Below, in pieces: positions 3,084 to 26,811 of a stretch of DNA of 32,000 nucleotides. Location of the stretch: positions 630,001-662,000 of the forward strand of contig CP061211.1 in the NCBI GenBank assembly GCA_026016245.1. Reading direction: 5' to 3'. The notes under the pieces were generated by a model. That model was not told the origin of the DNA. It saw only the letters and a list, made by a program, of their open reading frames with translations, and searched no databases. The position numbers and the translations under genes were made by a program. The DNA comes from Candidatus Pacearchaeota archaeon. GTDB taxonomy: Archaea > Nanobdellota > Nanobdellia > Pacearchaeales > UBA284. Each line of letters opens with the position of its first letter. Position 1 is the stretch's first letter.

Positions 3084-3165
3084 CGCCCGGACCAGGATTC
3101 GAACCTGGATATCCTTGCGGAAACCAGCTCTCAAGGCTGGCGCCTTACCATTGGGCCATCCGGGC
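3084..3165 (-). tRNA. tRNA-Ser (anticodon UGA), class II with long variable arm, no encoded CCA, no intron
   Basis: The reverse complement folds by hand into a cloverleaf: acceptor GCCCGGA/TCCGGGC, 3-bp D stem GCC/GGC, anticodon stem CCAGC/GCTGG with loop CTTGAGA (anticodon TGA), variable arm TCC-GCAA-GGA, T arm CCAGG-TTCGAAT-CCTGG, discriminator G. Confidence 0.92.
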
Positions 3166-4721: not shown

Positions 4722-5135
4722 TTATTTTAATCTTTTTCTTAAAATGAATTTCAATTTGTTAATTATTAAATCCAATTTTTCTTTTTTATTTTCTAGATAT
4801 GGGCTTTTAATTGGCCTGCCTTCATAGGAGCTTTTATTTCTTTTTGTTCTTAAATCTTGAATTGTCATTACTTCATCTTGAGAAAATTCTTTATAATTTG
4901 ATAAATAATCGATTGTTTCTTTATGCGCATACTCTCCAATAGCTTTAAAACCATCAGAGAGTAAAAGAGCAGTTATTAGCTCTCTTATTACTTCATAATA
5001 TTCTCTAACGATTATGCTTTGGTCTTCCATCTTACCTAATTTTTTAATAATTTCTTTAAGCATATTTTCTATATTTTCTGCCATTTTAAGTATAGATTTT
5101 GCTTTTTCTCTATCTAGAGTTATTTTAATTATCAT
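4722..5135 (-). CDS. HEPN-domain protein, partner of the upstream MNT; the Rx4-6H His is replaced by Glu
   Basis: 137-aa helical protein 1 nt downstream of an MNT gene. The motif region DLRTKRNKSSYEG aligns with SSRENADYHYV of the second HEPN (9720..10142) but has E where H is expected. Confidence 0.55.
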   Translation of the reverse strand: MIIKITLDREKAKSILKMAENIENMLKEIIKKLGKMEDQSIIVREYYEVIRELITALLLSDGFKAIGEYAHKETIDYLSNYKEFSQDEVMTIQDLRTKRNKSSYEGRPIKSPYLENKKEKLDLIINKLKFILRKRLK

Positions 5136-5136
5136 C

Positions 5137-5661
5137 TTAAAAAACCTTGAAATACCCCTTTAAAACAATTCCATTACAAAGATTGTTTTTTAAATTTTTA
5201 GGGATTTTTTTTACTTCTTTTTCAAACATTAAATGTATCCTTGCATTTAATTTTTCCTCAAATTTGTTACAATTAATTTCTTTTTCTTTCCCTATAATAA
5301 ATAAATCTATATCTGAGTATTCAATGAATTCACCCTTAGCATAGCTTCCATATAAAATTATTGCTTCAGGGGCAAGTTCTTCCCATAAATAATCAATTAA
5401 ACCAGAGCTATGCAATTCATACAAAACAGCAAGCTTTCTATAAAAGACAAAATTTTCATTATCCATGATTGCTTGATAGTAAGGGATATTTCTTTTCTTG
5501 AATCTCCTAATAAGCTCTTTTTTTTCAAATTCTCTAAGGTAATTCATAACAGAAGGCGGGGAAATTTTACTTAATCTGCTTAGTTCCCTGAGTCTAAAGC
5601 TATCGCTTGGACTAAATAAAAAAATTTTCAGTAATTTGTATTTGTTATATTTTTCTAACAT
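5137..5661 (-). CDS. wHTH-fused minimal nucleotidyltransferase (MNT), antitoxin-type partner of HEPN
   Basis: N-terminal wHTH-like segment LRELSRLSKISPPSVMNYLREFEKKELI. Nucleotidyltransferase signature GSYAKGEFIEYSDIDLFII (G-S ... D-x-D). Confidence 0.8.
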   Translation of the reverse strand: MLEKYNKYKLLKIFLFSPSDSFRLRELSRLSKISPPSVMNYLREFEKKELIRRFKKRNIPYYQAIMDNENFVFYRKLAVLYELHSSGLIDYLWEELAPEAIILYGSYAKGEFIEYSDIDLFIIGKEKEINCNKFEEKLNARIHLMFEKEVKKIPKNLKNNLCNGIVLKGYFKVF

Positions 5662-5700
5662 TTGTTATATTATTATTACATTTGTTATAATATAATAACA
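5641..5700. promoter_or_regulatory. Candidate operator: three direct TTTGTTATA repeats spaced exactly 20 bp, spanning the MNT start codon
   Basis: TTTGTTATA(T/A) starts at 5641, 5661 and 5681. Copies 2 and 3 share ACATTTGTTATA. The MNT ATG is the complement of 5659-5661. A partial inverted copy is at 5691-5700. Confidence 0.45.
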
Positions 5701-5746
5701 TTACTTTTTAAATCTTTTGTTTCAAGATTAAAAACAAAAAATAATC

Positions 5747-5784: not shown

Positions 5785-8181
5785 TTAAGCTATTACAGTG
5801 ACTGTTGTTGTGGCAGTATCTAGCAAGATCTTGTCTCCGCTTATAACTGGAGTGCTTTCTCTTAGGACTTTAGCTGCTCTTGCAGTATCCAAGTCCTCGT
5901 AACCTGCAACTATCATAGCGTATTTGCCTTCTGCGTAAGGACTTGCCATGACATAAATCATAGCCTTACCCAAAGCATCAACGCCTGTAGCATCTATCCA
6001 AGCTTGTTCAGTACCATATGTAGGATAGTCCAAACCAAGTACATCAGCTGTTGCGCTGTTGATACCTGAACCACCTGCAAAGATTAAGTTCATGTCCTGG
6101 ACAGTTGCTAGCTCATCATCATAAGCTCCAATAGCTGCCCCACCAGCATATCCTGGTGTAAGCTCTGGGATTGTTGCAAGTAACTCTGAAACATAGACTT
6201 TGTGGATAGCTTCCTCTTCTGGATATGTCCAAGTAAGATCATCGTCATCATCTGTATTGAATCTGAAGAGTGCTCCAAAATCTATAGCATCAATAGCTAC
6301 GTCATAGTCAGAGTCTTTTTCTTCAGCATCCCATGCTAGAGCGCTTGTTGAGTCTGGAACAATTATCATGTCACCAGTACCATCATCTTCAAGTGTCCAT
6401 GCTTCTGCACCAATCAAATCAGTGCCATCGTCAGTAAATAGCTGGGCATTTGCATTTGTGGTATCAAACTGAAGGTCTATCTCGCCTGCTAATGATGTCA
6501 AAAAGTCTCCTGCCTCACAAGCTGTGCCACAAGTATTGATGATAGTTGCAGTAGTTGTGTTAGTTGCATTAACAACCTCAAGTGTTATTGTAGCGAAACC
6601 TAGAACAATAGGATTAGAATAATCTCTATCATTCCAAGATGTTGAGCCTGGAGATATTTCTTTCAAGTCCAGTGTCTCGTCGGCAATGTCAATATCATCT
6701 ATCTCCAAGATTCTTGCCTCACCACCTGTTCCAACAACAAGCAAGTAAATGCCTTCACATTCAGTAACTGAAGCACCGCCAGTACATCCATCGCCATCAG
6801 CGATAAGCAAATTACCGCCTGGTCCAGCTGCTGGTCCATTTCCATCTTGAGTTACATTGATAGCTGCTCCAATGTCTGTAGCAAGATCATCTCCCGGATA
6901 TGTTTCATTAGATGTATCATCCAAGATGAACGGAATTTCAAGAACATCACCTGCGACATTTGTGAACTCAAGTATACCATCATCTCCACTTGTTGTCAAG
7001 CTAAATGACTCTGTGTCAGACAACAATCCTTGGTAAGTGAATTTGAACCTACCTAAAATAGGATCTGTCCAAGATTCTCCTGTAGCCAAGAATATGTCAT
7101 CATCAGGTGTAAGTTCTAAGTTGATTTCAGCAAGCTCTTCATGTGCAGCGCCTGCCTGCAATTCAACGTCTGAGCCATCTATTGGTTCGCCATTGATTTC
7201 AATTTCATTTCCTTGTTCAAAGTCCATTTTTTCAGCTCCAAGATAAAATGTTACCAAGTCATTACCAACAGCTTGCTCGCCACTCATCTCAGCTCCTTCA
7301 TTAGGCACAACATCTAAGACACCTACTCTTGTATCATCTTCAAGAGTATAGGTATCACTTTCAACCATTTTATCAGTCTCTTCGCCATTTATTACTAAAA
7401 TAACAGATGCTCCTACGTCTGAGATAATCTTTACTTCTACTTCATAGGTTTTTCCACCCATGGTATAGGTTTCAGTGCTGTACTCCCATTGAGAAGCTTT
7501 CAATGCTCCACCCATTATTGTCAATGAATCTATTTCCATGACGCCACCACCGATATCTTCTGCAGTCGCATCTACGATGAAGTATTCTCTTCCAAGCATT
7601 TTTAACTTGGTTAGTTCGAAATCTTCATCTATAGTGCCTGTATCAGTTGAGTCAAATTCTACAGGGTTGTCAAATACTAATCTATAGTTATATGCTACTA
7701 CAGCATCATCAAAATATAGATAAGTATTGACTGGTCTATTAGATGTTTCTCTATTTCGCAAGAAATCCATTGTTCCTGTGCTATTAGTAAATTCAATGAA
7801 TTGTTCATAGCTAACATCATTATCTGTATTACCTCTTGATTCCCGATATCTTCCATCTGCTAACAGGACATCAAGGTCCCTAGCTTCAAGAGTATCTTCT
7901 ACATCAAACAAATCCTCGCCGTAGTTTAGGTCATTTCCTGGAGCAGCGATTAGATGAGCTTCTCCTGTTGGAGCTGCTCCGCCGTCTCCAGCAAAACCTA
8001 GAGCTGCTGTTAAGTCTACCACAGCCAAAGCATCAGCATTTCTGTGGAAAACTATAGCAGTATCAGTTCCTGGGAAATTGTTTCTCCAAGTTGCTAGATC
8101 TTGAGCCATTGCGAATCCAACGCTTGTTAGTCCTAGCATACATGCCACTGCTAAAGGTGCAATTTTCTTTAACAGTTTCAT
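5785..8181 (-). CDS. S-layer-like major surface protein (acidic, Lys-poor, Thr/Asp/Gly/Ala-rich)
   Basis: Sec signal MKLLKKIAPLAVACMLGLTSVGFAMA-Q. No TM anchor. The terminal segments resemble the archaeal S-layer protein family (for example MIVAGYEDLDTARAAKVL near the C-terminus); this is recognition from memory. The track start at 8208 is a GTG, so the ATG at 8181 is preferred. AAGGAGGT lies upstream, but 15 nt from that ATG. Confidence 0.65.
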   Translation of the reverse strand: MKLLKKIAPLAVACMLGLTSVGFAMAQDLATWRNNFPGTDTAIVFHRNADALAVVDLTAALGFAGDGGAAPTGEAHLIAAPGNDLNYGEDLFDVEDTLEARDLDVLLADGRYRESRGNTDNDVSYEQFIEFTNSTGTMDFLRNRETSNRPVNTYLYFDDAVVAYNYRLVFDNPVEFDSTDTGTIDEDFELTKLKMLGREYFIVDATAEDIGGGVMEIDSLTIMGGALKASQWEYSTETYTMGGKTYEVEVKIISDVGASVILVINGEETDKMVESDTYTLEDDTRVGVLDVVPNEGAEMSGEQAVGNDLVTFYLGAEKMDFEQGNEIEINGEPIDGSDVELQAGAAHEELAEINLELTPDDDIFLATGESWTDPILGRFKFTYQGLLSDTESFSLTTSGDDGILEFTNVAGDVLEIPFILDDTSNETYPGDDLATDIGAAINVTQDGNGPAAGPGGNLLIADGDGCTGGASVTECEGIYLLVVGTGGEARILEIDDIDIADETLDLKEISPGSTSWNDRDYSNPIVLGFATITLEVVNATNTTTATIINTCGTACEAGDFLTSLAGEIDLQFDTTNANAQLFTDDGTDLIGAEAWTLEDDGTGDMIIVPDSTSALAWDAEEKDSDYDVAIDAIDFGALFRFNTDDDDDLTWTYPEEEAIHKVYVSELLATIPELTPGYAGGAAIGAYDDELATVQDMNLIFAGGSGINSATADVLGLDYPTYGTEQAWIDATGVDALGKAMIYVMASPYAEGKYAMIVAGYEDLDTARAAKVLRESTPVISGDKILLDTATTTVTVIA

Positions 8182-8782
8182 CTTATTTATTTTTAAACCT
8201 CCTTTCACTCATTGTTTTTATTAGCCAGCTTTTCAGCTTTTTTCAATCAAGCAACTATATTAAGAACGTAAATAGTAGTTTTAGCAATATTATTCATTCC
8301 TAAGCCTAAAGCTAAGAACTGAACAAAATTCAACCAAAAAACATATTTTACATTCATTTTATTTTACCTGACTGATGCCTTCCACAGTTTAGACTTTGAC
8401 ACTATTGAATTTGTGTATATCTAAACTATGAGTCGCGACCCTTTTATTAGAAAGGATCACTGGCCAGTTTTATAACATATTGCTATGTTACAATAAAAAT
8501 CTCGGGTTTTTTCTTTTTAAAGGTTTCGACAGAACTGATTTTAACACCTTTTCTATGTATTTTTATTTATAAATCTTATGCCCCTATTTAATAATTACCA
8601 CAAATCAGGACATTCAAGGTTCTTTTAGATGTGGGGTATATTTTCAGACATATATGGTTTTTGAAAACATATATAATAGAACAATAATGTTTAAGTATAT
8701 ATTTTGTTTCTCTCTATTAGAATAATTGTCGTCGTGTTTTTTACTCAATAGAAAGAACAAAACAAATAAAAAGGAATGAAAA

Positions 8783-9166
8783 ATGCCTAGAAAGAAAAAA
8801 ATAACAAAAAACGTGGTTATTAAGCTTAGTCTTACTGAATCTAGTGAACCTGGCTTTTTGTTAGGAGTTTTGAGAGCTCCGTGGCCAATAAAATCTGATT
8901 CAGAATTTTCAGTAAGGCAGCTTAGACAGCTTTTGAGTGGGGGAAAAGCTAAGATTTTGCATGTTCTAAAGGTTAAAAAGCCAAAATCCATCTATTCTTT
9001 GGCCAAGGAACTTGAAAGAGATTTTAAGGCTGTAAGGCAGGATTTAAAGCTATTAGAACAGTTTGGATTTGTTCGTTTAATCCCTGAGCAAGATAAAAAG
9101 ACAGGAAAGAACAGGCTTAAGCCTGTTATAGGATTAGACAAACTTCAAGTGAATATAGAAGTTTAG
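8783..9166 (+). CDS. Winged-helix (ArsR/MarR-like) DNA-binding protein
   Basis: SIYSLAKELERDFKAVRQDLKLLEQFGFVRL matches a helix-turn-helix plus wing pattern. Confidence 0.55.
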   Translation: MPRKKKITKNVVIKLSLTESSEPGFLLGVLRAPWPIKSDSEFSVRQLRQLLSGGKAKILHVLKVKKPKSIYSLAKELERDFKAVRQDLKLLEQFGFVRLIPEQDKKTGKNRLKPVIGLDKLQVNIEV

Positions 9167-9184
9167 AAGTCTAGATTTATAGTT

Positions 9185-9685
9185 TTAATTGGACTTGTAA
9201 TAATAGAATCTTAGCTTGACTATTATATCTTCTCCTGTTAGTGTAGGAAGAGGAACACTTGAACCAAAATAATTACCTTCTAGCTGGCCATTTTCTCTAT
9301 AAAATATTTCTTTAGTATTACTTATATTCATAATATAGCCATGAATATAGGCATCAGCTATACTTTCCTCAAGAAATCCTTCTAACATAGTATCAAGTTC
9401 AGTTTCTAAAAAATCGCAAGTGTTTATATTATTATCACAAAATCTGTTATTATTGCACTCTCTAGGTAGTTCTCTGATATTCTGAGGAGAGCCAGCTATC
9501 TTACATTCAGTTGTATAGCTTAGCATTGCTTGAAGAAGATCATCTAATTCAGCTTGTTTTGGCTCTATGATTTCAGATTTTGGGCGTAAGGCAAGGGCAA
9601 AGAAAACAAGACCTATGACCATGACTATAAGAACTATAATTACAAAGCCAAAAACTTCTTCTTGTGCTTTTTTATTGTTTTCCAT
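9185..9685 (-). CDS. Type IV pilin-like protein (class III signal peptide), Cys-rich extracellular domain (pilin-like D)
   Basis: MENNKKA-QEEVFGFVIIVLIVMVIGLVFFALAL: short basic leader, KKAQ cleavage-type motif and a hydrophobic helix. Five Cys in the mature part. Confidence 0.65.
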   Translation of the reverse strand: MENNKKAQEEVFGFVIIVLIVMVIGLVFFALALRPKSEIIEPKQAELDDLLQAMLSYTTECKIAGSPQNIRELPRECNNNRFCDNNINTCDFLETELDTMLEGFLEESIADAYIHGYIMNISNTKEIFYRENGQLEGNYFGSSVPLPTLTGEDIIVKLRFYYYKSN

Positions 9686-9722
9686 TTTTTCTTTTATTTA
9701 TTTCAGCTCCTTCTCTTTTTTA
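9685..9722. repeat. 38-bp perfect direct repeat, copy 1 (flanks HEPN/MNT pair 2)
   Basis: TTTTTTCTTTTATTTATTTCAGCTCCTTCTCTTTTTTA, identical to 10730-10767. Its first nt is the A of the pilin-like D ATG. Its last 3 nt form the HEPN stop codon. Confidence 0.9.
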
Positions 9723-10142
9723 CAACTTATCTAACAATTTTTTCATTCTAGCTAAAAAATCCTTAGCTATTTCTAAGCTGTGTTTAGCTTCTTCTTTGCT
9801 ATAAACATAGTGATAATCAGCATTTTCCCTTGAAGACAGGACAGCTTCAAAATCATTCACATATTTAAATTCAAGCTTGCCTTTTTTATTTAAGTCTTCT
9901 AAAACAACAACTATAGCAAAATGTCTTTTCTCTCTAAAGCCCAAGTTGAAAAGAACTGCCCTTGCAGAATGAAACATACTATAATATGCTTGGATAATGG
10001 CCCATTTCCAATCTTCTTCTTTAAATACTTTTTTTGACCTATTAAGATCATAAGCAGCTTCAGTAAATTCTTTTTCTACTAAGTCAGCTGAGGGTTTAAT
10101 TTCTATTAAAAATCTTTGTTTTAAACAGTCTTTAATATCCAT
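9720..10142 (-). CDS. HEPN-domain protein (canonical R-x5-H motif), toxin-type partner of MNT
   Basis: SSRENADYHYVY contains R-E-N-A-D-Y-H. 140-aa helical protein located 1 nt downstream of the MNT gene. Confidence 0.8.
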   Translation of the reverse strand: MDIKDCLKQRFLIEIKPSADLVEKEFTEAAYDLNRSKKVFKEEDWKWAIIQAYYSMFHSARAVLFNLGFREKRHFAIVVVLEDLNKKGKLEFKYVNDFEAVLSSRENADYHYVYSKEEAKHSLEIAKDFLARMKKLLDKL

Positions 10143-10143
10143 T

Positions 10144-10692
10144 TTACAGCTTTATCTTATCTTTTTCAACTCTTTCATAAAAAGCACTATCTTTTCTTGC
10201 AATCTGCGACCATTCCTGTTGAGAAAATATTTGTATTTTTATAGGCCTGTTAATACTGCTAGCTATTTTATTTATATCTCGAATAATTTGTTCTCTCTTT
10301 ATTTTTCCTATTATCAAAATATCAAGATCACTATCTTCAACATCCTCACCTCTTGCAGCACTTCCATACAAATAAGCTTTAACATTAAATTTTGTAGAAA
10401 GATCTCTGATTTTTGCTAGACTCAACAAATTATTAATTATTTTTAGTTGTTTTATAATTGGATTTTCTTTATTTAAGCTATATAACTTGGTTACGCCAAC
10501 TTTCTCAACTCTGACAAAATCTTTTTTTTCTAGTTCTTTTAACCATTTTGTTGCACTAGCTTTAGCTAATTTTACTTTTTGTTTTAGTTTTTTTTGATTA
10601 AGTTGAATGCTTGGTCTTTCAAGAAAGAAAGATAAGAGTTTTAAAAGTGCCTTGCCTTTAAAAAGTTCATTTAAGTAGGCTATTTGGTTCAT
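10144..10692 (-). CDS. wHTH-fused minimal nucleotidyltransferase (MNT)
   Basis: N-terminal wHTH-like region (KLAKASATKWLKELEKKDFVRVEKVG). Signature GSAARGEDVEDSDLDILII. Confidence 0.8.
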   Translation of the reverse strand: MNQIAYLNELFKGKALLKLLSFFLERPSIQLNQKKLKQKVKLAKASATKWLKELEKKDFVRVEKVGVTKLYSLNKENPIIKQLKIINNLLSLAKIRDLSTKFNVKAYLYGSAARGEDVEDSDLDILIIGKIKREQIIRDINKIASSINRPIKIQIFSQQEWSQIARKDSAFYERVEKDKIKL

Positions 10693-10729
10693 TTTAATAT
10701 TCTAATAAGTTCACCTTTTTAAACCTTTC

Positions 10730-10767
10730 TTTTTTCTTTTATTTATTTCAGCTCCTTCTCTTTTTTA
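10730..10767. repeat. 38-bp perfect direct repeat, copy 2
   Basis: Identical to 9685-9722. Contiguous with the 34-bp block at 10768-10801. Confidence 0.9.
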
Positions 10768-10820
10768 TTAATCAGAAACCAAGGTTTCTGATACTTTCCT
10801 TCCTTAACTTGTTTATTCAT
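10743..10820 (-). pseudogene. 25-codon ORF duplicating the N-terminal leader of pilin-like C (a truncated leader, or a uORF)
   Basis: Not in the ORF track. Translates to MNKQVKEGKYQKPWFLINKKEKELK*, compared with MENKIKKGKYRKPWFLINKKGQ... for pilin-like C. It starts 2 nt after the GNAT stop. Confidence 0.4.
10768..10801. repeat. 34-bp conserved block with 10-bp inverted arms (hairpin), copy 1
   Basis: TTAATCAGAAACCAAGGTTTCTGATACTTTCCTT. It contains ATCAGAAACC-AA-GGTTTCTGAT at 10771-10792. It matches 11735-11768 at 33 of 34 positions. Confidence 0.85.
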
Positions 10821-10822
10821 TT

Positions 10823-11242
10823 TCATAAATTTTTTGTTAACCAATACCAATCAAAATGGAATAAATCATTTTTCAATTCACCTTCTTTTTTATATCCATT
10901 CTTCTTATAAAATTTCAAAGCTTCTTTGTGCTTCTCTGAAGTAAACAGTTTAATTTTAAAACAATCTTTATTTTTCGCAATCTGTTCACATTTTTTTAAT
11001 AATTCTTGCCCTACCCCCTTATCTCTATATTCTTTCACTACTAACAATTCCTTCAATTCTGCAACCCTACCAATAATTCTGAGTCTGAAAAAACCAATTG
11101 CTCTCTTTTTTTGATAAGCAAGATAAAAAAATTCTTTTTGATTCCATGAAAACCCTCTTTCGATATTAAACTTTTTCCATGTTTTTTTTCCAAAGCTGCG
11201 CACTTTCTTCTTTGATACTTTTTTTATTCTTATTTTTTCCAT
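10823..11242 (-). CDS. GNAT-family N-acetyltransferase
   Basis: Acetyl-CoA motif A: LLVVKEYRDKGVGQELLKKCEQIAK. The C-terminal FYKKNGYK is typical of GNATs. Confidence 0.8.
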   Translation of the reverse strand: MEKIRIKKVSKKKVRSFGKKTWKKFNIERGFSWNQKEFFYLAYQKKRAIGFFRLRIIGRVAELKELLVVKEYRDKGVGQELLKKCEQIAKNKDCFKIKLFTSEKHKEALKFYKKNGYKKEGELKNDLFHFDWYWLTKNL

Positions 11243-11247
11243 TTTAT

Positions 11248-11787
11248 TTATGGCATGATTGTTGTGATTTTTATTTTAGCTACAACACATTTTGACTCTC
11301 TTGCATCAGTTTCCTCGCACAAAGGAATATAAGTTGAGTAAGTTATTGTAGATTCTTGGGTTAACTTGCTATAAACTGTGTATTTTTGCCCTCCACCATA
11401 GATTTCTTCTACAATAACTTTAGATATTGAAGCTTCCTGCCATATATTCTTATAATTATCTCTCAGATATGAATTTTCATCAAATGCCTTAAGCTTGTCT
11501 TTGTCAATGCAAGCTGTTTCAGTTGCTGTTCCAAATGAACTTGAGCATCTTAATTCTGGAAGCGAGGCAACTACTCTTAACATAGTAACTGTTCTTAACT
11601 CACGGATTTCACTTGCCATTTTCTGTAATTGTGCGGTTTGGAAGCGAGCAAAAAATAGGAAAAGAAGAGCAAATAAGAAAACTACTGCAACAAGAACAAA
11701 TGCCATTTCCTGAATTTTTATTTGTCCTTTCTTGTTAATCAGAAACCAAGGTTTCCGATACTTTCCTTTTTTTATTTTGTTTTCCAT
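11248..11787 (-). CDS. Type IV pilin-like protein with an unusually long leader (pilin-like C)
   Basis: The ATG at 11787 gives MENKIKKGKYRKPWFLINKKG-QIKIQEMAFVLVAVVFLFALLFLFF. The track start at 11808 would overlap the upstream gene. Four Cys in the mature part. Confidence 0.65.
   Translation of the reverse strand: MENKIKKGKYRKPWFLINKKGQIKIQEMAFVLVAVVFLFALLFLFFARFQTAQLQKMASEIRELRTVTMLRVVASLPELRCSSSFGTATETACIDKDKLKAFDENSYLRDNYKNIWQEASISKVIVEEIYGGGQKYTVYSKLTQESTITYSTYIPLCEETDARESKCVVAKIKITTIMP
11735..11768. repeat. 34-bp conserved block with hairpin, copy 2 (inside the pilin-like C leader codons)
   Basis: Single difference from copy 1 (C at 11756 versus T at 10789). On the mRNA strand this changes an A-U pair to G-U, so the stem is retained. 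Confidence 0.85.
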
Positions 11788-11788
11788 T

Positions 11789-12703
11789 TTAAAATAATGT
11801 GCAGTCACCCATATTATTTACATTTTTCAGTATCTGGGCAGTATTTTCCAGGGCAATTACATTATCCTTTATTGTAGGGCTATTGTAAAGTTTTTCTGAA
11901 GCATCTTTTATTGGTCTGAGATTATAGGAAACATCACAGCCTCTTTGTGATAATGCCAGGGATTTTTTTTCATAAACCAAAGCTTCAGAGTATATTCTAG
12001 AAGCAAGTCTTTGAAGATTACATCTATAAAGTGCAGGGTCTGAAAAAATAGCAGCATACATTAAAGCGTCTCCACTATAATAGACCTTTCCTTTCCCCTT
12101 CTTTTCAACACTATCACCATAAACTCTTATATCACAACTGCCTGTAAAACAAACTTTAATGCTATCTTTACTGCAATTTTGTGTTTTTATACTACTAATT
12201 TCTAATCTTTCAATTTCATTCTCAATTCTTGATGGGGCATTTTGAAAACAGTATTCTTGATTAGAGGGCCATAAGATAATGAGGTCAGCAACTCTCCAAG
12301 GCATTTCAAAAGGCTTGCTTAATGCCTCAAAATTCTTGCCTTTTATTGGTTGAGGAGTGAAGATGTATTTGTCATAGGCTATTTTTGGAACTCCTGCCTC
12401 TCCTTTTGATAAAAGTGTTATAGTATTTTTTCCTATCTCCCCTATTCTATTTCCTTTATCACAATTCATCAAGATTTCAGATTCTTCTGGGAGTGAGAGA
12501 GGATTATAAGTTGTTGCTCCTAAAGATCCTAAATAAGCAAAGGGATTTAGCAGGATGTCAAGACTTTGCGTTTCTATTGTTGTTTGTTCATATTGCTGTC
12601 TCAATAATGTGGTTCCAACAAAATAAAAAGCTAGAAAAAGGATCATGGCACCAACAACAACAGCAAAAATCCATGCAAACTGAAACTGTGCTTTTTTTCT
12701 CAT
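11789..12703 (-). CDS. Type IV pilin-like protein, large Cys-rich extracellular domain (pilin-like B)
   Basis: MRKKA-QFQFAWIFAVVVGAMILFLAFYFV, a class III-type signal. About ten Cys in the mature part. Confidence 0.6.
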   Translation of the reverse strand: MRKKAQFQFAWIFAVVVGAMILFLAFYFVGTTLLRQQYEQTTIETQSLDILLNPFAYLGSLGATTYNPLSLPEESEILMNCDKGNRIGEIGKNTITLLSKGEAGVPKIAYDKYIFTPQPIKGKNFEALSKPFEMPWRVADLIILWPSNQEYCFQNAPSRIENEIERLEISSIKTQNCSKDSIKVCFTGSCDIRVYGDSVEKKGKGKVYYSGDALMYAAIFSDPALYRCNLQRLASRIYSEALVYEKKSLALSQRGCDVSYNLRPIKDASEKLYNSPTIKDNVIALENTAQILKNVNNMGDCTLF

Positions 12704-12717
12704 CTTTAACTTTAATT

Positions 12718-13272
12718 TTAAGCTTGAGATGCCTGAGATATTGTGACATAAGGACTACCACCCTCTTTTGTTATCCTAAAAATAACTTTCCCATCTTCAA
12801 CAGGAAAACATCTTGTCTTATCTATACTTAGACATTCTTGTGTCCCGCATTTAAGATGCCATGCACTATAAGTTCCAAGATTTTCAGCTTTTCCTCCTGG
12901 ATATAAGAATAAGTTATCTTTATCAGTTCTTGCCCATGTTGGAACAATGACAGAACAAAGATCTGCTGGAATAATACCCCCTCTTAGATTACAATTATCT
13001 TGATTAACAAAACATACAGTCTCAATTCTATTGCATATTTTTAAATTATCAGTTGTTTTTGATGCTTCTTCTGCGCTCCATACACTTATTATTTCATTTT
13101 CCAATTCAGCAACATAGGAATTTATTTCTGCTTGGCATGCTCTATCTAAAATCCCTTTAATAGCCCATATTCCAACAAACAAGGCCACTGCAATTAGTAT
13201 GAGAGAAAAAATAAAGATGAAAGGCATGCCCATTACTTGGCCTTTTTTGTGTTTTTTACCTCTTTTTTTCAT
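12718..13272 (-). CDS. Type IV pilin-like protein, Cys-rich (pilin-like A), first gene of the operon
   Basis: MKKRGKKHKKG-QVMGMPFIFIFSLILIAVALFVGIWAI. Nine Cys in the mature part. Confidence 0.65.
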   Translation of the reverse strand: MKKRGKKHKKGQVMGMPFIFIFSLILIAVALFVGIWAIKGILDRACQAEINSYVAELENEIISVWSAEEASKTTDNLKICNRIETVCFVNQDNCNLRGGIIPADLCSVIVPTWARTDKDNLFLYPGGKAENLGTYSAWHLKCGTQECLSIDKTRCFPVEDGKVIFRITKEGGSPYVTISQASQA

Positions 13273-13294
13273 GAATTTTGATTGTTTTTAGTTC

Positions 13295-13333
13295 TTATAA
13301 AACTTTTTAAACTTTTCTTAGAAAGTTTTATAA
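13295..13333. promoter_or_regulatory. Divergent promoter pair: two BRE/TATA elements arranged as a 12-bp inverted repeat
   Basis: TTATAAAACTTT (13295-13306) and AAAGTTTTATAA (13322-13333) are exact reverse complements. The left one lies about 23 nt from the pilin-like A ATG (leaderless). The right one lies about 70 nt from the psmA ATG. Confidence 0.5.
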
Positions 13334-13406
13334 ATCCCTTATTTTTAAATTAGATAACGAGAAAGAAAAAACCTTGAACATTATTGGTTTTTAAAAAGGG
13401 TTTAAA

Positions 13407-14129
13407 ATGGAAATGGAAATGCAGCATAGGGTTATGGGATATGACAGAGCAGCAACTATGTTCAGCCCTGATGGCAGGATTTTACAAGTAGAATATGCTG
13501 AGAAAACTGTCAGGCTTGGTTCAGCTAGTGTTGGTCTGGTTTGTAGTGATGGTATTATGATAATTTCTGACAAACGTTTAGGAGATCCACTAGTACTGCC
13601 AGAAGCAATCCTGAAAATTTGGGAAATAGATGAGCATATTATTGCAACTGCTGCTGGTGTCTTGAGTGATGCTAGAGTTTTGCTTGAACATTCACAAGTC
13701 ATAGCTCAACAGCATAGAGTGACTTATGATCAACCTATTGATACTGAATCTGTTATCAAGGATGTGGCTAACATTCAACAGTCAGCAACACAATATGCAG
13801 GAGCTCGCCCATTTGGAATAGCAGTAATGATAGCTGGAATTAACAGGGATAATGCTAAGAAACTTTATGTGAGTGATGTTACAGGAAATTATCTTGGATT
13901 CAAGGCCAGTGTCATTGGCGAGAATGATGATAGAATTAAAGAATTATTGCAGAAAGGCTATAAAGAAAGTCTTAGTGTTGATCAAGGCATCAAATTTACA
14001 TTAAATATTTTTAAAAAAGTATTAGGAAAGGGATTTAATATAGAAAGATTTGAGACTGTTTTTGTTAAAACTGATGATAAGAAAGCAAAAAGGCTTCATG
14101 GAGCAGCCCTATCCAAGTATGTAAGATAA
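13407..14129 (+). CDS. psmA: Proteasome subunit alpha
   Basis: GYDRAATMFSPDGRILQVEYA N-terminal signature. 240 aa. Confidence 0.95.
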   Translation: MEMEMQHRVMGYDRAATMFSPDGRILQVEYAEKTVRLGSASVGLVCSDGIMIISDKRLGDPLVLPEAILKIWEIDEHIIATAAGVLSDARVLLEHSQVIAQQHRVTYDQPIDTESVIKDVANIQQSATQYAGARPFGIAVMIAGINRDNAKKLYVSDVTGNYLGFKASVIGENDDRIKELLQKGYKESLSVDQGIKFTLNIFKKVLGKGFNIERFETVFVKTDDKKAKRLHGAALSKYVR

Positions 14130-22469: not shown

Positions 22470-22515
22470 AAATTTTAAAATTTTCTGATTTTTATTTAAA
22501 AAACTTTCTATTTTT

Positions 22516-22539
22516 GGTTTTGTGAAGTCTTCGGTTGAT
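22516..22539. repeat. Terminal inverted repeat, left
   Basis: Exact reverse complement of 26710-26733. Starts with GG, as IS6-family ends do. Confidence 0.85.
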
Positions 22540-22559
22540 AAATTTAATAAAAAAAATAA

Positions 22560-22703
22560 TTAACCCTTCTTTTTTCTCGGTCTATTCCAATAAGGGCTTT
22601 TACATTTAGGGCATACTTTTGGCTCTTCCTTGCTATTTCTTCTTGGCATCCAAATATGACCACACCTCTCGCATTTATATCCCTCTATTTTTATCTTTGC
22701 CAT
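22560..22703 (-). CDS. 47-aa zinc-ribbon protein (CxxC ... CxxC)
   Basis: Not in the ORF track. Translates to MAKIKIEGYKCERCGHIWMPRRNSKEEPKVCPKCKSPYWNRPRKKKG. Confidence 0.55.
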   Translation of the reverse strand: MAKIKIEGYKCERCGHIWMPRRNSKEEPKVCPKCKSPYWNRPRKKKG

Positions 22704-22829
22704 ACCCATAAGTATATTATTTTTAGTATATAAACATTATTGCGATACAAAACATACCTTAAATTTCAATAGTCTTTATATATACCTAATACTATTATAT
22801 TATTAAGAATAGAGGTGATTAAATTCAAA

Positions 22830-23720
22830 ATGAAAAAAATTCAAGGACAAGAATACAAGGAAATTTCTGTCCATAAGGCAGATAAATGTCCTTACTGCAA
22901 GAACAAAAAGATAGTAAAGAATGGCTATCGCTTTAATCATACAAAGAAAAAACAAAGATATATCTGCAAGGAATGTGATAGAACTTTTGTAGTAGATGAT
23001 GGCTTCAAAAAGATGAAGTCAGAAAGAGAACTCATAACCTGCTGTCTTGATTTGTATATGAATGGAATGTCTTTAAGAAAAATTGAAGCTCATATTAATC
23101 AATTCTCACAAGAAAAAATAACTTACAGAAGCATACATAATTGGATTATTAGATATGCTAAACTGCTAAATTCATTCTCGCAAAGCTTTGATTTAAATTT
23201 ATCAAGACAATATCATACAGATGAGATTTTTGTTAAATGCAAGGGAGAACAGCATTATTTCTGGGATATAATTGACAAAGGCACAAGAATGCTCATAGCA
23301 ACACATTACAGCGAGAAGCGAGATAGCAAGAGTGCAAGAATGCTTTTCTTGAAGGTTAAGAACAGACCCTTAACACTATTTACAGATGGCTTACAAGGTT
23401 ATCAGAAAGCAGTAAGAAAGGTATTTGGAACTTTACATAAAGATAGAAAAGTTCAATACATTAGATTAAGAGCTAACAAAGACAAAAGAAATAATATTGT
23501 TGAGAGAATACAAGGAACAATTAGAGAGCGAATTAAAGTTATGAGGGCTTTCAAAAATAAAAAAGATGCTGAATTGTTTTTAGATTTGTTTGTTGTCTAT
23601 TATAATTTTATTCGTGTTCATCAAGGCATAGGAATGACACCAATAGAAAAAGCTGGTGTTGAGCTTGGGCTTGGCGAGAATAAATGGCTTGATTTGATTT
23701 ATAGAGCAAGAGGATTATGA
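22830..23720 (+). CDS. IS6-family DDE transposase with N-terminal zinc finger
   Basis: CPYCKNKK...CKECDRTF. DDE triad contexts HTDEIFVKCKG, LFTDGLQGYQKAV and NNIVERIQGTIRERIKVMRAF, then YNFIRVHQGI. The ATG at 22830 is preceded by AGAGGTGAT. The track start at 22815 is a GTG. Confidence 0.85.
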   Translation: MKKIQGQEYKEISVHKADKCPYCKNKKIVKNGYRFNHTKKKQRYICKECDRTFVVDDGFKKMKSERELITCCLDLYMNGMSLRKIEAHINQFSQEKITYRSIHNWIIRYAKLLNSFSQSFDLNLSRQYHTDEIFVKCKGEQHYFWDIIDKGTRMLIATHYSEKRDSKSARMLFLKVKNRPLTLFTDGLQGYQKAVRKVFGTLHKDRKVQYIRLRANKDKRNNIVERIQGTIRERIKVMRAFKNKKDAELFLDLFVVYYNFIRVHQGIGMTPIEKAGVELGLGENKWLDLIYRARGL

Positions 23721-26087
23721 ATTTATTTCTAAATATTTGGAATAATTTAAACCTTTTATATAATTCTCAATCCAATCCCAATCTACTTTTCTATTTTTAA
23801 AAGGCAGTTTAATAATTGTTTCTTTAATCCTATCCTGATTGAATTTTCTACCATAAGAATACCTATATTGTTCCATATTTATTATCGTAGCTAAGAATAA
23901 AGCCCTGAATACATTTAAATTGAATTTAGGTATTAATTTCTCTACATGGTCACTTGCAGAGAATTTAAGGGGTTGATAAGAACAAAATCCAATTGTAGCA
24001 CTATCAATTGTTAATACATTCCCCTCATCTGTATAAAAATTATAAAATCCTCTTACTCCGTTATTTGTTGCTTGTGTAGTTACATAAGGATACTTTCCCT
24101 CTTTATACCTTTCTTCAAGAATTTTTTTATCTGTTGTTTTTGAACCCTTAACATCAAATAATTTTTTTAATTGTATAAATTTCCATTTCTTGAAATCTAA
24201 TTTCAATTTTTTATTACTATAACTTTCCCTTGAAACTTTGTCTTGTAATTCATTATGATAAAGAAAAGTAGAGTATTCTCTTAATGTTTTCTCAAAATTT
24301 TTATCTGTTAAATTTTTAAATTTTGTTTTAATATATGGCTCAACTAACAACTCATCATCAAAATCTACGTGTCTTAATATAGAAAACCCTTCAATTTCTT
24401 TTTTATTGAAAAAACTATTTAACCACAATTTTTTTATTTTATCCCGATAAATACCATAATAATCTATTCTGCCATAAGGTCTTACTTTAATAAAGCCATC
24501 ATTTTTCCAGTAACCAAACCATGTTTTAGTATTTTTACTATGTTGTTTATGGGCTTCAAAAATTAAAATACAAGCAACTGCATTTGTATTGCTATCTTCA
24601 AATAAGGTATTAGACATACTCATCACTGCCTTTAAAGTATGTTTCTGTAATAATCTTTTTTTAACTGCTAAATTTCCTTTCTTTGTATTCATAGCACAAG
24701 ATTGAGGCACAATTGCTATACAAATTCCATTAGGTTCTAAAAAAGACAAGGCATTTTCAATAAAGGTTAATTCTTTATGTCCATTCCCTTTTGAATAAGG
24801 GGGATTAAGAAAAGCAATTGTTGGTTTAAATTTTTTAATTTCTTCCTCATTAATCTCAAAACAATCTTGCTGATGTATATTTGATTTTCCATCTCCCCTC
24901 AGCATCATATTTGAACAAGCAAGAACGAACATTTTAGGATTATTTTCAATACCTATTAACTGCTTTTTGTGAATGTGCTTTATTTTTGTTTTATCACCTT
25001 TTGCTTCTTCTTCCATTCTCCTCATAGCACTTATTAAAAAGCCACCAGTTCCACAGCAATTATCAATAATGATACTGTCTTTATTTACTTCTGCGAGGTC
25101 TGAAAATAACTCTGTTATATGTTTTGGTGTTAAAACTATTCCCAAACCACCATCACTATTAGCATACCTTAAAAACTCGTTATAGAATAAACCTAAAATA
25201 TCATGGAATCTATAATTTTGGGAAAATGGTTTGATATTATATTCTACTTCTTTAATTAAATCTTTTAAAAGAGTGTTTGGAGTTCCATCTTTATTTTTTG
25301 CATTTATAATTTTTGTATTTGTTCTCATAAAACCATAAGTCTGGACTATTGTATTTTGTTTAACTCCTTTAATATTATCTCGCTCTAATCTTTCTTTTAT
25401 TGTTGTTATTATCAAATCTGCTATTTCAAGGGGCTTTTCTTTTTTTAAATATGATAAACAAAAGCCCTCATCTTCAAGAGCCAATAAAATTCCACTAACA
25501 ATTAAAGGTCTAAGATTTTCTTCAAATTCAAAATCATCTCTTAATTTTTGATTTAATAATTGTGAATATTCTATTAGTCTTTTAAAATCAACTTTTTCTT
25601 TTATATCATCTTTTTTTAGAATACCAAAATAATCAACAAACTCATAAATTTTTTGTATTTTTAAATCTCTTGCATTTTTTTCTCTTCTTATTTGTAGGTA
25701 AGTATCAATCACAAGTTCTTTTTTAGTTTGTCCAGAAGCCCCAATAGAAATAACATCAAATTCTTTTGATAAATAAGAAGAATAAAGCAAAACACCATCA
25801 ACAGCGTATGTATCATATTTATCTAAATTTTTACTTTTATGGTATTTTATATCTCCTTTGCATTCTACCACAATTATTAAATCCTTATTTGGAAAGCTTA
25901 TAATAAATTCTGGATACCCCATTCCACTTCCTTTTTTAGAAGCGGTCTTAAGAAGTTTATCTATTCGTGGATTGTCTGATTTTTGTTCTTCTATAATAAC
26001 TGATTGTTCTGTTTCCTTTTCATATTCATTTTTATTTTTATATAAAATATCTCTTATAATCTTTTCAGTTTTTCTTTCATTAACCAT
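23715..26087 (-). CDS. Single-chain restriction-modification-specificity enzyme (Type IIG/IIC-like): PD-ExK nuclease, gamma-class N6-adenine methyltransferase and one HsdS-like TRD
   Basis: GYPEFIISFPNKDLIIVVECK (nuclease). IIDNCCGTGGFL (motif I) precedes FLNPPYSKG (motif IV). C-terminal TRD: WKFIQLKKLFDVKGSKT...YPYVTTQATNNGVRGFY. Confidence 0.8.
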   Translation of the reverse strand: MVNERKTEKIIRDILYKNKNEYEKETEQSVIIEEQKSDNPRIDKLLKTASKKGSGMGYPEFIISFPNKDLIIVVECKGDIKYHKSKNLDKYDTYAVDGVLLYSSYLSKEFDVISIGASGQTKKELVIDTYLQIRREKNARDLKIQKIYEFVDYFGILKKDDIKEKVDFKRLIEYSQLLNQKLRDDFEFEENLRPLIVSGILLALEDEGFCLSYLKKEKPLEIADLIITTIKERLERDNIKGVKQNTIVQTYGFMRTNTKIINAKNKDGTPNTLLKDLIKEVEYNIKPFSQNYRFHDILGLFYNEFLRYANSDGGLGIVLTPKHITELFSDLAEVNKDSIIIDNCCGTGGFLISAMRRMEEEAKGDKTKIKHIHKKQLIGIENNPKMFVLACSNMMLRGDGKSNIHQQDCFEINEEEIKKFKPTIAFLNPPYSKGNGHKELTFIENALSFLEPNGICIAIVPQSCAMNTKKGNLAVKKRLLQKHTLKAVMSMSNTLFEDSNTNAVACILIFEAHKQHSKNTKTWFGYWKNDGFIKVRPYGRIDYYGIYRDKIKKLWLNSFFNKKEIEGFSILRHVDFDDELLVEPYIKTKFKNLTDKNFEKTLREYSTFLYHNELQDKVSRESYSNKKLKLDFKKWKFIQLKKLFDVKGSKTTDKKILEERYKEGKYPYVTTQATNNGVRGFYNFYTDEGNVLTIDSATIGFCSYQPLKFSASDHVEKLIPKFNLNVFRALFLATIINMEQYRYSYGRKFNQDRIKETIIKLPFKNRKVDWDWIENYIKGLNYSKYLEINS

Positions 26088-26196
26088 TCTAAACCTTTTT
26101 TTATAAAGGGATGGGCTTTCTTAAATGTTCCGTATGGAATGTTATTCCTTTTTAGTCAATAAAAAATTATAAAAGGTTTGATTTTTAAATATAAAT

Positions 26197-26343
26197 ATGG
26201 CAGACATTTGTGAAAACTGTAAAAAGGCTATCAAAGATGATATGAAGAAATTAGTCAGTCAGAATGATAGCGAAGAAAATATTTATTTTTGTAGCTGGAA
26301 GTGTCATGAAGAGTTTGAAGAAAAAATTAACGGGAAAAAATAA
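26197..26343 (+). CDS. 48-aa TRASH/zf-FCS-like zinc-finger protein
   Basis: Not in the ORF track. Translates to MADICENCKKAIKDDMKKLVSQNDSEENIYFCSWKCHEEFEEKINGKK (CxxC ... FCSxxC). Its TAA is followed directly by the next ATG. Confidence 0.55.
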   Translation: MADICENCKKAIKDDMKKLVSQNDSEENIYFCSWKCHEEFEEKINGKK

Positions 26344-26676
26344 ATGAATAAAACCAAAATTAAAATTTTCTTGAAAATTACCAAAATAATAAATAAGAAG
26401 TTTTGTAAAGATAAGCTTGAGATTAATAAGATAGTATTTTTTAATGGAAAACACAAAGGTAAGAAAAATGATGGCTATTATGCAGTAAATAGTAAAATAA
26501 TAGGTATAAGCAAAAAAGAGCCATTATTTTGCCAGATTAGGACATTACTACATGAACTTACTCATGCTTACCAAAATCAGATTATGAATTGCAAAGGAAA
26601 GCATAATAAACAAGGAGAAAGAGTATTTTATAAATTTATGAAAGAGATAGATAAAACATTAAAGATTTCTGTGTAA
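26344..26676 (+). CDS. Small SprT-like HExxH zinc-metallopeptidase-domain protein
   Basis: LLHELTHAYQNQIMNCKGKHNKQGERVFYKFM: HExxH plus a downstream His, in an SprT-like arrangement. 110 aa. Confidence 0.5.
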   Translation: MNKTKIKIFLKITKIINKKFCKDKLEINKIVFFNGKHKGKKNDGYYAVNSKIIGISKKEPLFCQIRTLLHELTHAYQNQIMNCKGKHNKQGERVFYKFMKEIDKTLKISV

Positions 26677-26709
26677 ATATGATATTCACTTAATTTTTTT
26701 ATCCATTCC

Positions 26710-26733
26710 ATCAACCGAAGACTTCACAAAACC
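26710..26733. repeat. Terminal inverted repeat, right
   Basis: ATCAACCGAAGACTTCACAAAACC, the exact reverse complement of 22516-22539. Confidence 0.85.
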
Positions 26734-26811
26734 CTATGACGAAAGATTTATAAAAGAAAGGTTATAATCAAACATATTGGTTATGAAATAATCATTATAG
26801 GCTAAGGGAAA

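Follow-up and report, generated by a model that had tools for sequence, protein, structure and literature searches.

How does a gene pair of the toxin-antitoxin (TA) type come to stand within an operon of pilin-like genes, with the same 38 bp on either side of it? The question is raised by a 32,000-nt stretch of the genome of a Candidatus Pacearchaeota archaeon (assembly GCA_026016245.1, contig CP061211.1, positions 630,001 to 662,000; hereafter, the window), in which the genes for a winged helix-turn-helix (wHTH) protein with a minimal nucleotidyltransferase (MNT) domain and for a HEPN protein are bracketed by perfect direct repeats. DPANN archaea have tiny genomes, and their acquisition of accessory genes is poorly understood. 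We favour, at a probability of about 0.8, the reading that the pair constitutes a mobile, self-promoted TA cassette and that the repeats are its insertion joints. A horizontally acquired cassette would have been inserted in the 5' region of the pilin-like gene D, where it would have separated the old long leader peptide from the mature pilin, and a new start codon would now be used.

The cassette and the interrupted pilin gene

All relevant genes are located on the minus strand and follow each other, in the direction of transcription, in the order pilin-like A, B, C, a GNAT acetyltransferase gene, a leader open reading frame (ORF), repeat copy 2, a 37-nt spacer, wHTH-MNT, HEPN, repeat copy 1 and pilin-like D (Table 1). 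The initial annotation had described an identical 38-mer (TTTTTTCTTTTATTTATTTCAGCTCCTTCTCTTTTTTA) at both sites with a period of 1045 bp, and a scan of the window with up to three mismatches allowed recovered exactly these two copies; shuffled sequences yielded matches in 0/100 cases and the chance expectation is 0. Within the 1007 bp in between, ORF and Pfam reading identified only the wHTH-MNT and HEPN genes, as had been claimed, along with the 37-nt promoter stretch. The reported positions of the joints relative to the genes could be read directly from the sequence: the HEPN stop codon TAA is the complement of 9720-9722, i.e. the first 3 nt of copy 1 on the minus strand, and the complement of 9685, the last base of copy 1 on that strand, is the A of the pilin-D ATG. 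Copy 1 accordingly provides the HEPN stop codon, 34 nt upstream of pilin D and the first base of its start codon, and copy 2 (minus-strand reading TAAAAAAGAGAAGGAGCTGAAATAAATAAAAGAAAAAA) includes the last seven codons and the stop codon of the leader remnant. Removal of one copy together with the cassette joins the leader ORF and pilin D in the same frame, with TAA and ATA AAA GAA AAA between them, again in agreement with the annotation. That both copies are perfect suggests a recent event, or repeated resetting. It is the only repeat-delimited cassette of the window. Both the cassette (GC content, 28.4%) and the GNAT gene (27.4%) are AT-richer than the pilin genes of the operon (32-34%). No inverted repeats were found at the cassette ends and no transposase domain in the cassette, and Rfam gave no match in 8000-13500.

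Relatives of the host operon argue strongly for an insertion. Pilin-D homologues occur in other Pacearchaeota, and three of them were traced to contigs (L164, L167 and L168; L numbers denote the loci and contigs compared here). In all three, pilin D begins 1-7 nt after pilin C, with no GNAT gene and no TA pair between them. L164 retains the neighbourhood, including enolase, the exosome genes, SBDS and proteasome alpha, followed by pilin genes A-B-C-D and a gene for an HVO_A0114-type helix-turn-helix (HTH) protein; identity to the window is 83% for proteasome alpha and 77% for pilin C. These syntenic relatives bear out the proposed insertion of a two-gene cassette, and none of them shows the TA pair at this place without repeats.

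The fate of the pilin-D leader can be followed in the same relatives. Pilin D of L168 (P0127) begins MKKNNKKSKRRYQKPWFLINKKAQEE and carries the leader motif fused to the mature pilin (...YQKPWFLINKKAQEE); what in the window forms the motif of a separate leader ORF (…KYQKPWFLINKK) here runs straight into the mature N-terminus, AQEE. The simplest reading is therefore that the leader ORF represents the original 5' end of pilin D, now detached, which upholds the earlier claim that the two belong together. In the window, a new short signal peptide of class-III type, MENNKKA/QEEVFGF, now forms the start of pilin-like D. A 22-nt near-perfect palindrome (ATCAGAAACCTTGGTTTCTGAT), located at 10771-10792 and 11738-11759, encodes the residues YQKPWFLI within the leader peptides of pilin C and of the old pilin D; the motif is also present in pilin C of L164 and in pilins C and D of L168, and absent from L167.

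A second insertion, separate from the first, placed the GNAT gene between the pilin-C stop codon and the old pilin-D start. The gene begins 5 nt after the pilin-C stop codon, has no promoter of its own, and has only two homologues (55% and 47%), both in unrelated contexts; its flanks share only a low-complexity match of 17-19 nt. Of the earlier suggestion that this gene, too, is cassette cargo, the insertion relative to the relatives stands, and delimitation by the 38-mer does not.

What does the cassette encode? The wHTH-MNT protein combines an N-terminal MarR-like winged helix with a minimal nucleotidyltransferase (motif GSAARGEDVEDSDLD). The MNT signature hG[GS]x9-13Dh[DE] is present as YGSAARGEDVEDSDLDIL in the translation, and residues G110, S111, R114, G115, D122 and D124 are invariant in 28 homologues; we regard the protein as the putative antitoxin and autoregulator. 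The HEPN protein, a putative RNase toxin, contains an Rx4-6H-type motif, RENADYH (SRENADYHY in the translation), and matches PDB entry 2hsb, a UPF0332 protein. Both genes are co-oriented and 1 nt apart. With the NCBIfam model for type VII MntA (NF047752), the MNT protein scores 26.7 bits against a cut-off of 60, and the pair is therefore treated as a HEPN-MNT TA module at the domain level only.

The spacer between copy 2 and the MNT gene contains a TATA-like box at 10716-10723. As this box begins 31 nt before the MNT ATG, a leaderless transcript is implied, and the cassette mRNA is probably leaderless. The transcription factor B recognition element (BRE)/TATA box AAAGGTTTAAATA, flanked by TGAAC(C), recurs at the same distance in 60/76 distinct homologous cassettes, compared with 1 match in the control region; the TGAAC motifs are probable operator half-sites for the wHTH domain. 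The cassette is a complete expression unit and nothing more: a promoter/operator and two genes, ending at the HEPN stop codon.

Table 1. Position of the features discussed, for the window and for arrays at related loci (in coordinates of the respective locus)
Feature	Position	Strand	Remarks
Pilin-like A	12718-13272	-	Host operon, divergent from proteasome alpha gene
Pilin-like B	11789-12703	-	Host operon
Pilin-like C	11248-11787	-	Host operon
GNAT acetyltransferase	10823-11242	-	Absent from relatives; not flanked by 38-mer
Leader remnant	10743-10826	-	MKMNKQVKEGKYQKPWFLINKKEKELK, then stop; paralogous to pilin-C leader
Repeat copy 2 (upstream joint)	10730-10767	-	
Cassette promoter	10693-10729	-	GAAAGG-TTTAAAAA-GGTGAAC; 37 nt between copy 2 and ATG
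wHTH-MNT	10144-10692	-	182 aa; Pfam NTP_transf_2, Polbeta, MarR
HEPN	9720-10142	-	140 aa; UPF0332-type (PF05168); Pfam HEPN 1.6e-15
Repeat copy 1 (downstream joint)	9685-9722	-	
Pilin-like D	9185-9685	-	
Acidic secreted protein	5785-8208		807 aa
Tandem 20-nt repeats	5640-5702		ATTTGTTATA...ACATT, three units
Second wHTH-MNT	5137-5661	-	Pfam NTP_transf_2, MarR
Partner of second wHTH-MNT	4722-5135		137 aa
Inverted repeats	22490-22559 / 26690-26759		70 nt, 77% complementary
IS6/IS240-family DDE transposase	22815-23720		
N6-methylase with type I S-domain	23715-26087		790 aa, convergent with transposase
Array in L061	4999-8114		
Array in L044	5867-9278		
Array in L125	1209-5456		
Array in L017	946-3402		
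Array in L057	656-3557		

A second wHTH-MNT gene of the window adjoins a gene for a 137-aa partner, which has no Pfam or NCBIfam match. Three tandem 20-nt repeats overlap the start of this second wHTH-MNT gene and are operator-like. The GC content of this minus-strand region (4722-5702) is 26.1%, and the only flanking match of the second TA cassette (4722-5661) is 12 nt long and within background. Beyond the host operon, the window also encodes an acidic, Thr/Asp/Glu-rich secreted protein without Pfam or NCBIfam match, which is probably a major surface (S-layer-like) protein; the GC content of this stretch is 37-42%, compared with 32% for the window, and homologous large genes come after the HTH gene in L001 and L164.

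Repeats, arrays and movement of related cassettes

Do similar repeats accompany related cassettes elsewhere? When the JGI metagenome and GTDB genome collections were scanned with a profile built from the 28 MNT homologues, 160 loci were obtained, and a HEPN gene adjoins the MNT gene in 99 of them. For the 83 pairs with sufficient flank, 400 nt upstream of the MNT gene were aligned with 150 nt after the HEPN stop codon, using the reverse complement, a displaced downstream window and a displaced upstream window as three controls. Direct-repeat scores of at least 30 were obtained for 14/83 cassettes (13 of them non-redundant) and of at least 36 for 12/83, compared with 1/0/0 and 0/0/0, respectively, in the controls. 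The repeats are 25-100 bp long (up to ~290 bp inside arrays), 80-97% identical and different in every lineage, and the pair in the window is the only perfect one. All of them share the geometry seen in the window: the start of the downstream copy lies -8 to +32 nt from the HEPN stop codon, and the upstream copy extends as far as the cassette promoter or stops a few tens of nt short of it, as illustrated by the repeat of L018 (38/40). This signature ranges over Nanoarchaeota/Woesearchaeota (L093, for Nanoarchaeota), Micrarchaeota (L135), Aenigmatarchaeota (L142), Nanohalarchaeota (L125) and Methanocellales (L116).

At five loci (L061, L044, L125, L017 and L057), one genome-specific repeat separates two to three different small cassettes, forming arrays that adjoin housekeeping genes such as rps7 or a class I aminoacyl-tRNA synthetase gene. 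Their cargo comprises MNT/HepT and wHTH-MNT/HEPN pairs, a PIN gene with its partner, an AAA_14/DUF4143 ATPase and others without assignment. In L061, a 38-40-nt repeat occurs four times (at 4999, 5867, 6979 and 8074) with identical boundaries, between three cassettes of the nucleotidyltransferase (NTase)/HEPN type; in L044, four repeat copies alternate with an MNT-HEPN pair, an AAA_14/DUF4143 ATPase and a PIN gene with partner. The L057 copies have a 17-nt core common to all four and at least 57 nt common to three.

Repeats whose origin could be traced prove to be ends of host genes. The L017 repeat corresponds to the 3' end of rps7 including the stop codon, and two degenerate copies lie upstream; between the copies stand the TA cassette and another cassette of two genes. 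In L018, the repeat is again the rps7 stop region, and the corresponding place next to rps7 is occupied by the TA cassette alone. In L125, it is a GT2-like gene on the minus strand (named by eye, from its translation only) whose 3' end makes up the repeat, with copies of 59, ~150 and ~290 nt that become longer toward the gene. The repeats of L116 and L135 comprise the 3'-terminal codons of a co-directional upstream ORF, ending in L116 12 nt before the native stop codon.

The cassettes themselves appear to move independently of their surroundings. TA cassettes of L017, L018 and L019 are 94-95% identical at the DNA level, whereas rps7, rps12 and nusA of L017 and L018 are only 75-81% identical, and the block of high identity extends from the operator/promoter to the HEPN stop codon and no further. 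Similarly, L010 and L090 share 92% identity in the cassette and 76-86% in the flanks. The reverse is seen for L040 and L061, in which the repeat and right flank are 95% alike and the cassettes are different, i.e. the slot has been turned over. L039 and L040 are 98-99% identical, yet L039 (1649-1659) is devoid of 30 nt of the downstream copy (L040, 1291-1331) that adjoins their common cassette, which makes the repeat a polymorphic feature of the population. Judged from these comparisons, it is the promoter-to-stop unit that moves horizontally. A scan of IMG/VR with the MNT profile revealed no viral carriers.

Two further homologues stand in other company. In L173 (1667-4733), a 66%-identical MNT-HEPN cassette clusters with a PhageMetallopep gene, a diadenylate cyclase (DAC) gene and a second NTase/HepT-like pair; the cluster resembles a small defence/TA island and has no detectable flanking repeats. 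In the Thermoplasmata contig L147 (1155-4078), MNT-HEPN genes are located directly upstream of genes that are cas4-, cas1- and cas2-like by size and order only. A 14-nt sequence of this contig (GATGGGCAAAATTT, at 1155 and 2386, and degenerate at 3156) was judged a possible chance match and set aside.

The joining step and rival explanations

How might such a unit enter and leave the chromosome? Under the favoured reading, the two 38-bp copies would be the left and right joints, comparable to attL and attR, and the sequence of the insertion point would now be found on both sides; the upstream ORF would therefore keep its stop codon and pilin D its upstream sequence. Recombination between the copies would free a 1045-bp circle, consisting of the cassette and one copy, and restore the empty site, and re-entry would use the same sequence. 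Repeated use of one site would build arrays of different cassettes with the same repeat between them. Given that the cassette encodes no enzyme for these steps, the activity would be host-encoded or supplied in trans, either by homologous recombination or by another recombinase. For the joining step, we weakly prefer a circle model, in which one repeat copy recombines with a chromosomal copy. The identical boundaries in L061, the accretion pattern and a core common with the repeat of L169/L170 favour this model. L169/L170 contain the nearest relative of the cassette (74% at the amino acid level) in a different context, and AG.AGCTGAAAT is common to their repeat and that of the window, at both ends, which suggests that part of the repeat travels with the cassette. 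A caveat attaches to this shared core (GCTGAAAT), since GCTGAAA, a 7-mer, is by itself found roughly every 6.4 kb.

Several observations weigh against the repeats being joints of a mobile unit. The 38-mer is unusual as a recombinase site: one strand consists of purines throughout, and it therefore has no dyad symmetry and no inverted recombinase-binding arms. Compared with a pilin D of the P0127 type, the window contains 48 extra nt in addition to the cassette (30 non-ancestral nt of the repeat and TGGAAAACAATAAAAAAG). There is a resemblance between the start of pilin C (ATGGAAAACAAAATAAAAAAAG) and the new one of pilin D (ATGGAAAACAATAAAAAAG), and likewise between the final 16 nt of the repeat and the stop-spacer-start junction that separates pilins C and D of L168; the 38 bp may have pre-existed at the site or have come partly with the cassette. 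Recognisable repeats accompany only ~15-20% of homologous cassettes, and those without them may be old insertions or have arrived by another route. Comparison of a filled with two empty loci (L086 with L087 and L094) identified no repeats around an extra 1.3 kb neighbouring insertion. The reads of run DRR463595, in an independent k=31 assembly (Logan), provide no direct evidence of excision either. This assembly breaks exactly within the repeat: the cassette forms a separate contig of 1067 bp (1007+30+30), and the pilin-D and GNAT contigs each stop 30 nt into the repeat. All four repeat junctions are therefore present in the reads, and the graph fits an integrated cassette and an empty site plus a free circle alike. 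Finally, repeat copies cluster by genome and not by cassette, as in L017 and L018, which runs contrary to the core shared with L169/L170 and agrees better with a different mode of joining.

This mode is duplication of the target in place, a possible account to which we give rather less than even odds, and which concerns the joining step only and leaves mobility untouched. The cassette would enter in linear or copied form without a repeat of its own, and 38 bp of the host (25-290 elsewhere) would be duplicated, either by filling-in of widely staggered nicks or by a replication template switch that returns upstream. Beyond the clustering, in which repeat copies resemble those of their own genome and the host gene rather than those of the same cassette elsewhere, it could explain the 46-nt repeat of L116, which is internal to the host ORF and leaves the native last four codons with the distal copy. 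The related cassettes of L044 and L061 (74.5% DNA identity) have unrelated repeats outside the conserved block, and both the window and L013 have a HEPN stop codon that also belongs to the repeat, in the manner of a microhomology joint. The duplication model is at odds with other aspects of the data: random stagger does not predict that four copies in L061 share both boundaries, random template switching does not predict precise promoter-to-stop edges in independent contexts, and the window repeat would not be expected to share a core with that of the nearest cassette relative elsewhere. Repeat lengths vary, and a ruler-type integrase is not indicated.

Dependence on an integrase is a more doubtful alternative. 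Here, the cassette would be a satellite, comparable to a cis-mobilisable element or the remnant of a tycheposon, and its att sites would be used by a recombinase of the tyrosine or serine type whose gene lies on a helper element or at another place in the genome. Direct repeats that flank the unit and duplicate a conserved gene 3' end agree with this explanation, and tandem accretion at one site with older copies displaced from the gene, as in L017 and L125, is the classical signature of integrase islands. No such enzyme came to light, however. Among the scanned ORFs of the window, no recombinase domain was detected save that of an unrelated IS6-type transposase 12 kb away, which also upholds the statement that the cassette itself contains neither integrase nor transposase, and no strong recombinase match was obtained for 34 ORFs of intermediate size (190-520 aa) next to 11 loci with repeats, whose surroundings are of the housekeeping type (SRP54, primase, FEN1, PCNA). 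The lack of dyad symmetry in the 38-mer speaks against this alternative as well, and the repeats are unrelated between hosts that carry homologous cassettes, and no conserved attP travels with the unit.

An artefact of assembly, in which the cassette is in truth a free 1045-bp circle or resides elsewhere and has been threaded into the pilin operon via the 38-mer, is improbable. The k=31 graph, in which three contigs converge on the repeat, is as compatible with an empty site and a circle as with integration. However, the deposited 710-kb contig (P0001), whose MNT, pilin-D and GNAT proteins are 100% identical to those of the window, resolves the repeat, the same geometry is seen in many independent assemblies, and a circle carrying 38 bp identical to the chromosome would by its very existence imply the excision product that is proposed here.

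The two remaining explanations have next to nothing in their favour. The 38-mer as the attC site of an integron or CALIN cassette is suggested by the TA cargo, and we reject it because the defining hairpin structure is missing: folding of both window copies with their flanks as single-stranded DNA gave a minimum free energy of 0 kcal/mol, six other repeats had z-scores of -1.4 to +1.1 and no hairpins, and an all-purine strand makes R''/R' pairing impossible; moreover, the cassette has its own promoter, repeats of this kind derive from host gene ends, and no IntI was found in the window. The initial annotation had offered the likeness to integrons as an analogy, and it stands as far as repeat-delimited TA/defence arrays occur in related loci. 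Equally remote is an ordinary transposon target duplication or a generic operon-internal intergenic motif, for which the IS6/IS240-family transposase of the window could be cited; the cassette has neither terminal inverted repeats nor a transposase of its own, a duplication of 38 bp (25-290 bp elsewhere, and variable) is far above those of insertion sequences, and the 38-mer occurs twice only in 32 kb, with no match for its 27-nt core in exact scans of the GTDB genome and JGI metagenome collections. The transposon is thus rejected on its ends, its enzyme and the length of the duplication.

The IS6/IS240-family transposase gene is convergent with an N6-methylase gene, and imperfect inverted repeats bracket the two; the segment from 22490 to 26759 may be a composite mobile unit with a restriction-modification gene.

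Relation to known systems

If the joints of the cassette are recombination sites for a host function, they would offer a simple route for the spread and turnover of TA and defence genes in archaea. Both joints in the window are still identical, and the same signature, which is easy to search for, recurs elsewhere and in places takes the form of arrays of several cassettes beside rps7 or other housekeeping genes. The window also illustrates how a gene of a pilin-like surface structure outlived an insertion into its leader by means of a new start codon. Full-text searches of the literature revealed no earlier account of direct repeats of this kind around HEPN-MNT or TA cassettes.

With regard to its genes, the cassette agrees with HEPN-MNT modules (type II, or type VII HepT-MntA) in that a minimal nucleotidyltransferase adjoins a HEPN protein of the Rx4-6H type, with genes 1 nt apart and probably autoregulated. 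Unlike in HepT-MntA, the MNT protein bears an N-terminal wHTH domain and the HEPN protein is UPF0332-type (PF05168) rather than HepT/DUF86. In function, the cassette would, to judge from its domains, be an ordinary HEPN-MNT addiction or defence module.

Small modules without a recombinase are also known from bacteria. The pdif (Xer) modules of Acinetobacter plasmids are small, recombinase-less and often composed of TA pairs, and a host recombinase uses the sites that bound them; these are conserved 28-bp, dyad-symmetric XerC/D sites in inverted orientation. The cassettes described here are likewise small, recombinase-less and frequently TA modules between short sites. Their repeats differ in being direct, host-specific and asymmetric.

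Tandem accretion at the 3' end of a gene is exemplified by the cis-mobilisable elements (CIMEs) of the ICESt1/3 family. In tycheposons and CIMEs, as in the arrays, direct repeats duplicate a conserved host gene end, successive insertions at the same site push older ones outward, and some units are devoid of an integrase. The units described here are smaller (~1 kb, from promoter to stop codon), without a degraded integrase or replication module; their targets are ends of protein genes or a pilin leader instead of tRNA genes, and neither a conserved attP nor a helper element was identified. Tycheposons are integrase-driven islands that accrete in tandem at gene 3' ends (bioRxiv 10.1101/2020.12.28.424599).

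Archaeal integrons are defined by folded attC sites (Ghaly et al., 2022; PMC9668308). Similar to sedentary chromosomal integrons and CALIN arrays (PMC9668308), the array-bearing loci presented here hold small cassettes, often TA modules, in arrays whose separating repeats are alike within a genome and unlike between genomes, and the cassettes carry no recombinase. In contrast to attC, the repeats are not folded and are copied from host gene ends; moreover, the cassettes have their own promoter, whereas integron cassettes are mostly promoterless and expressed from Pc, and no IntI was found. In organisation, the module is comparable both to integron/CALIN arrays and to tandem accretion at gene 3' ends. 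We tentatively propose, as a possibility of rather less than even odds, that an undescribed form of cassette capture operates in archaea, especially DPANN: recombinase-less TA/defence units, extending from promoter to stop codon, would enter at gene boundaries and duplicate tens to hundreds of bp of a host gene end each time, giving rise to integron-like arrays with genome-specific, non-hairpin repeats by a mechanism distinct from those of integrons, integrase-borne islands and transposons.

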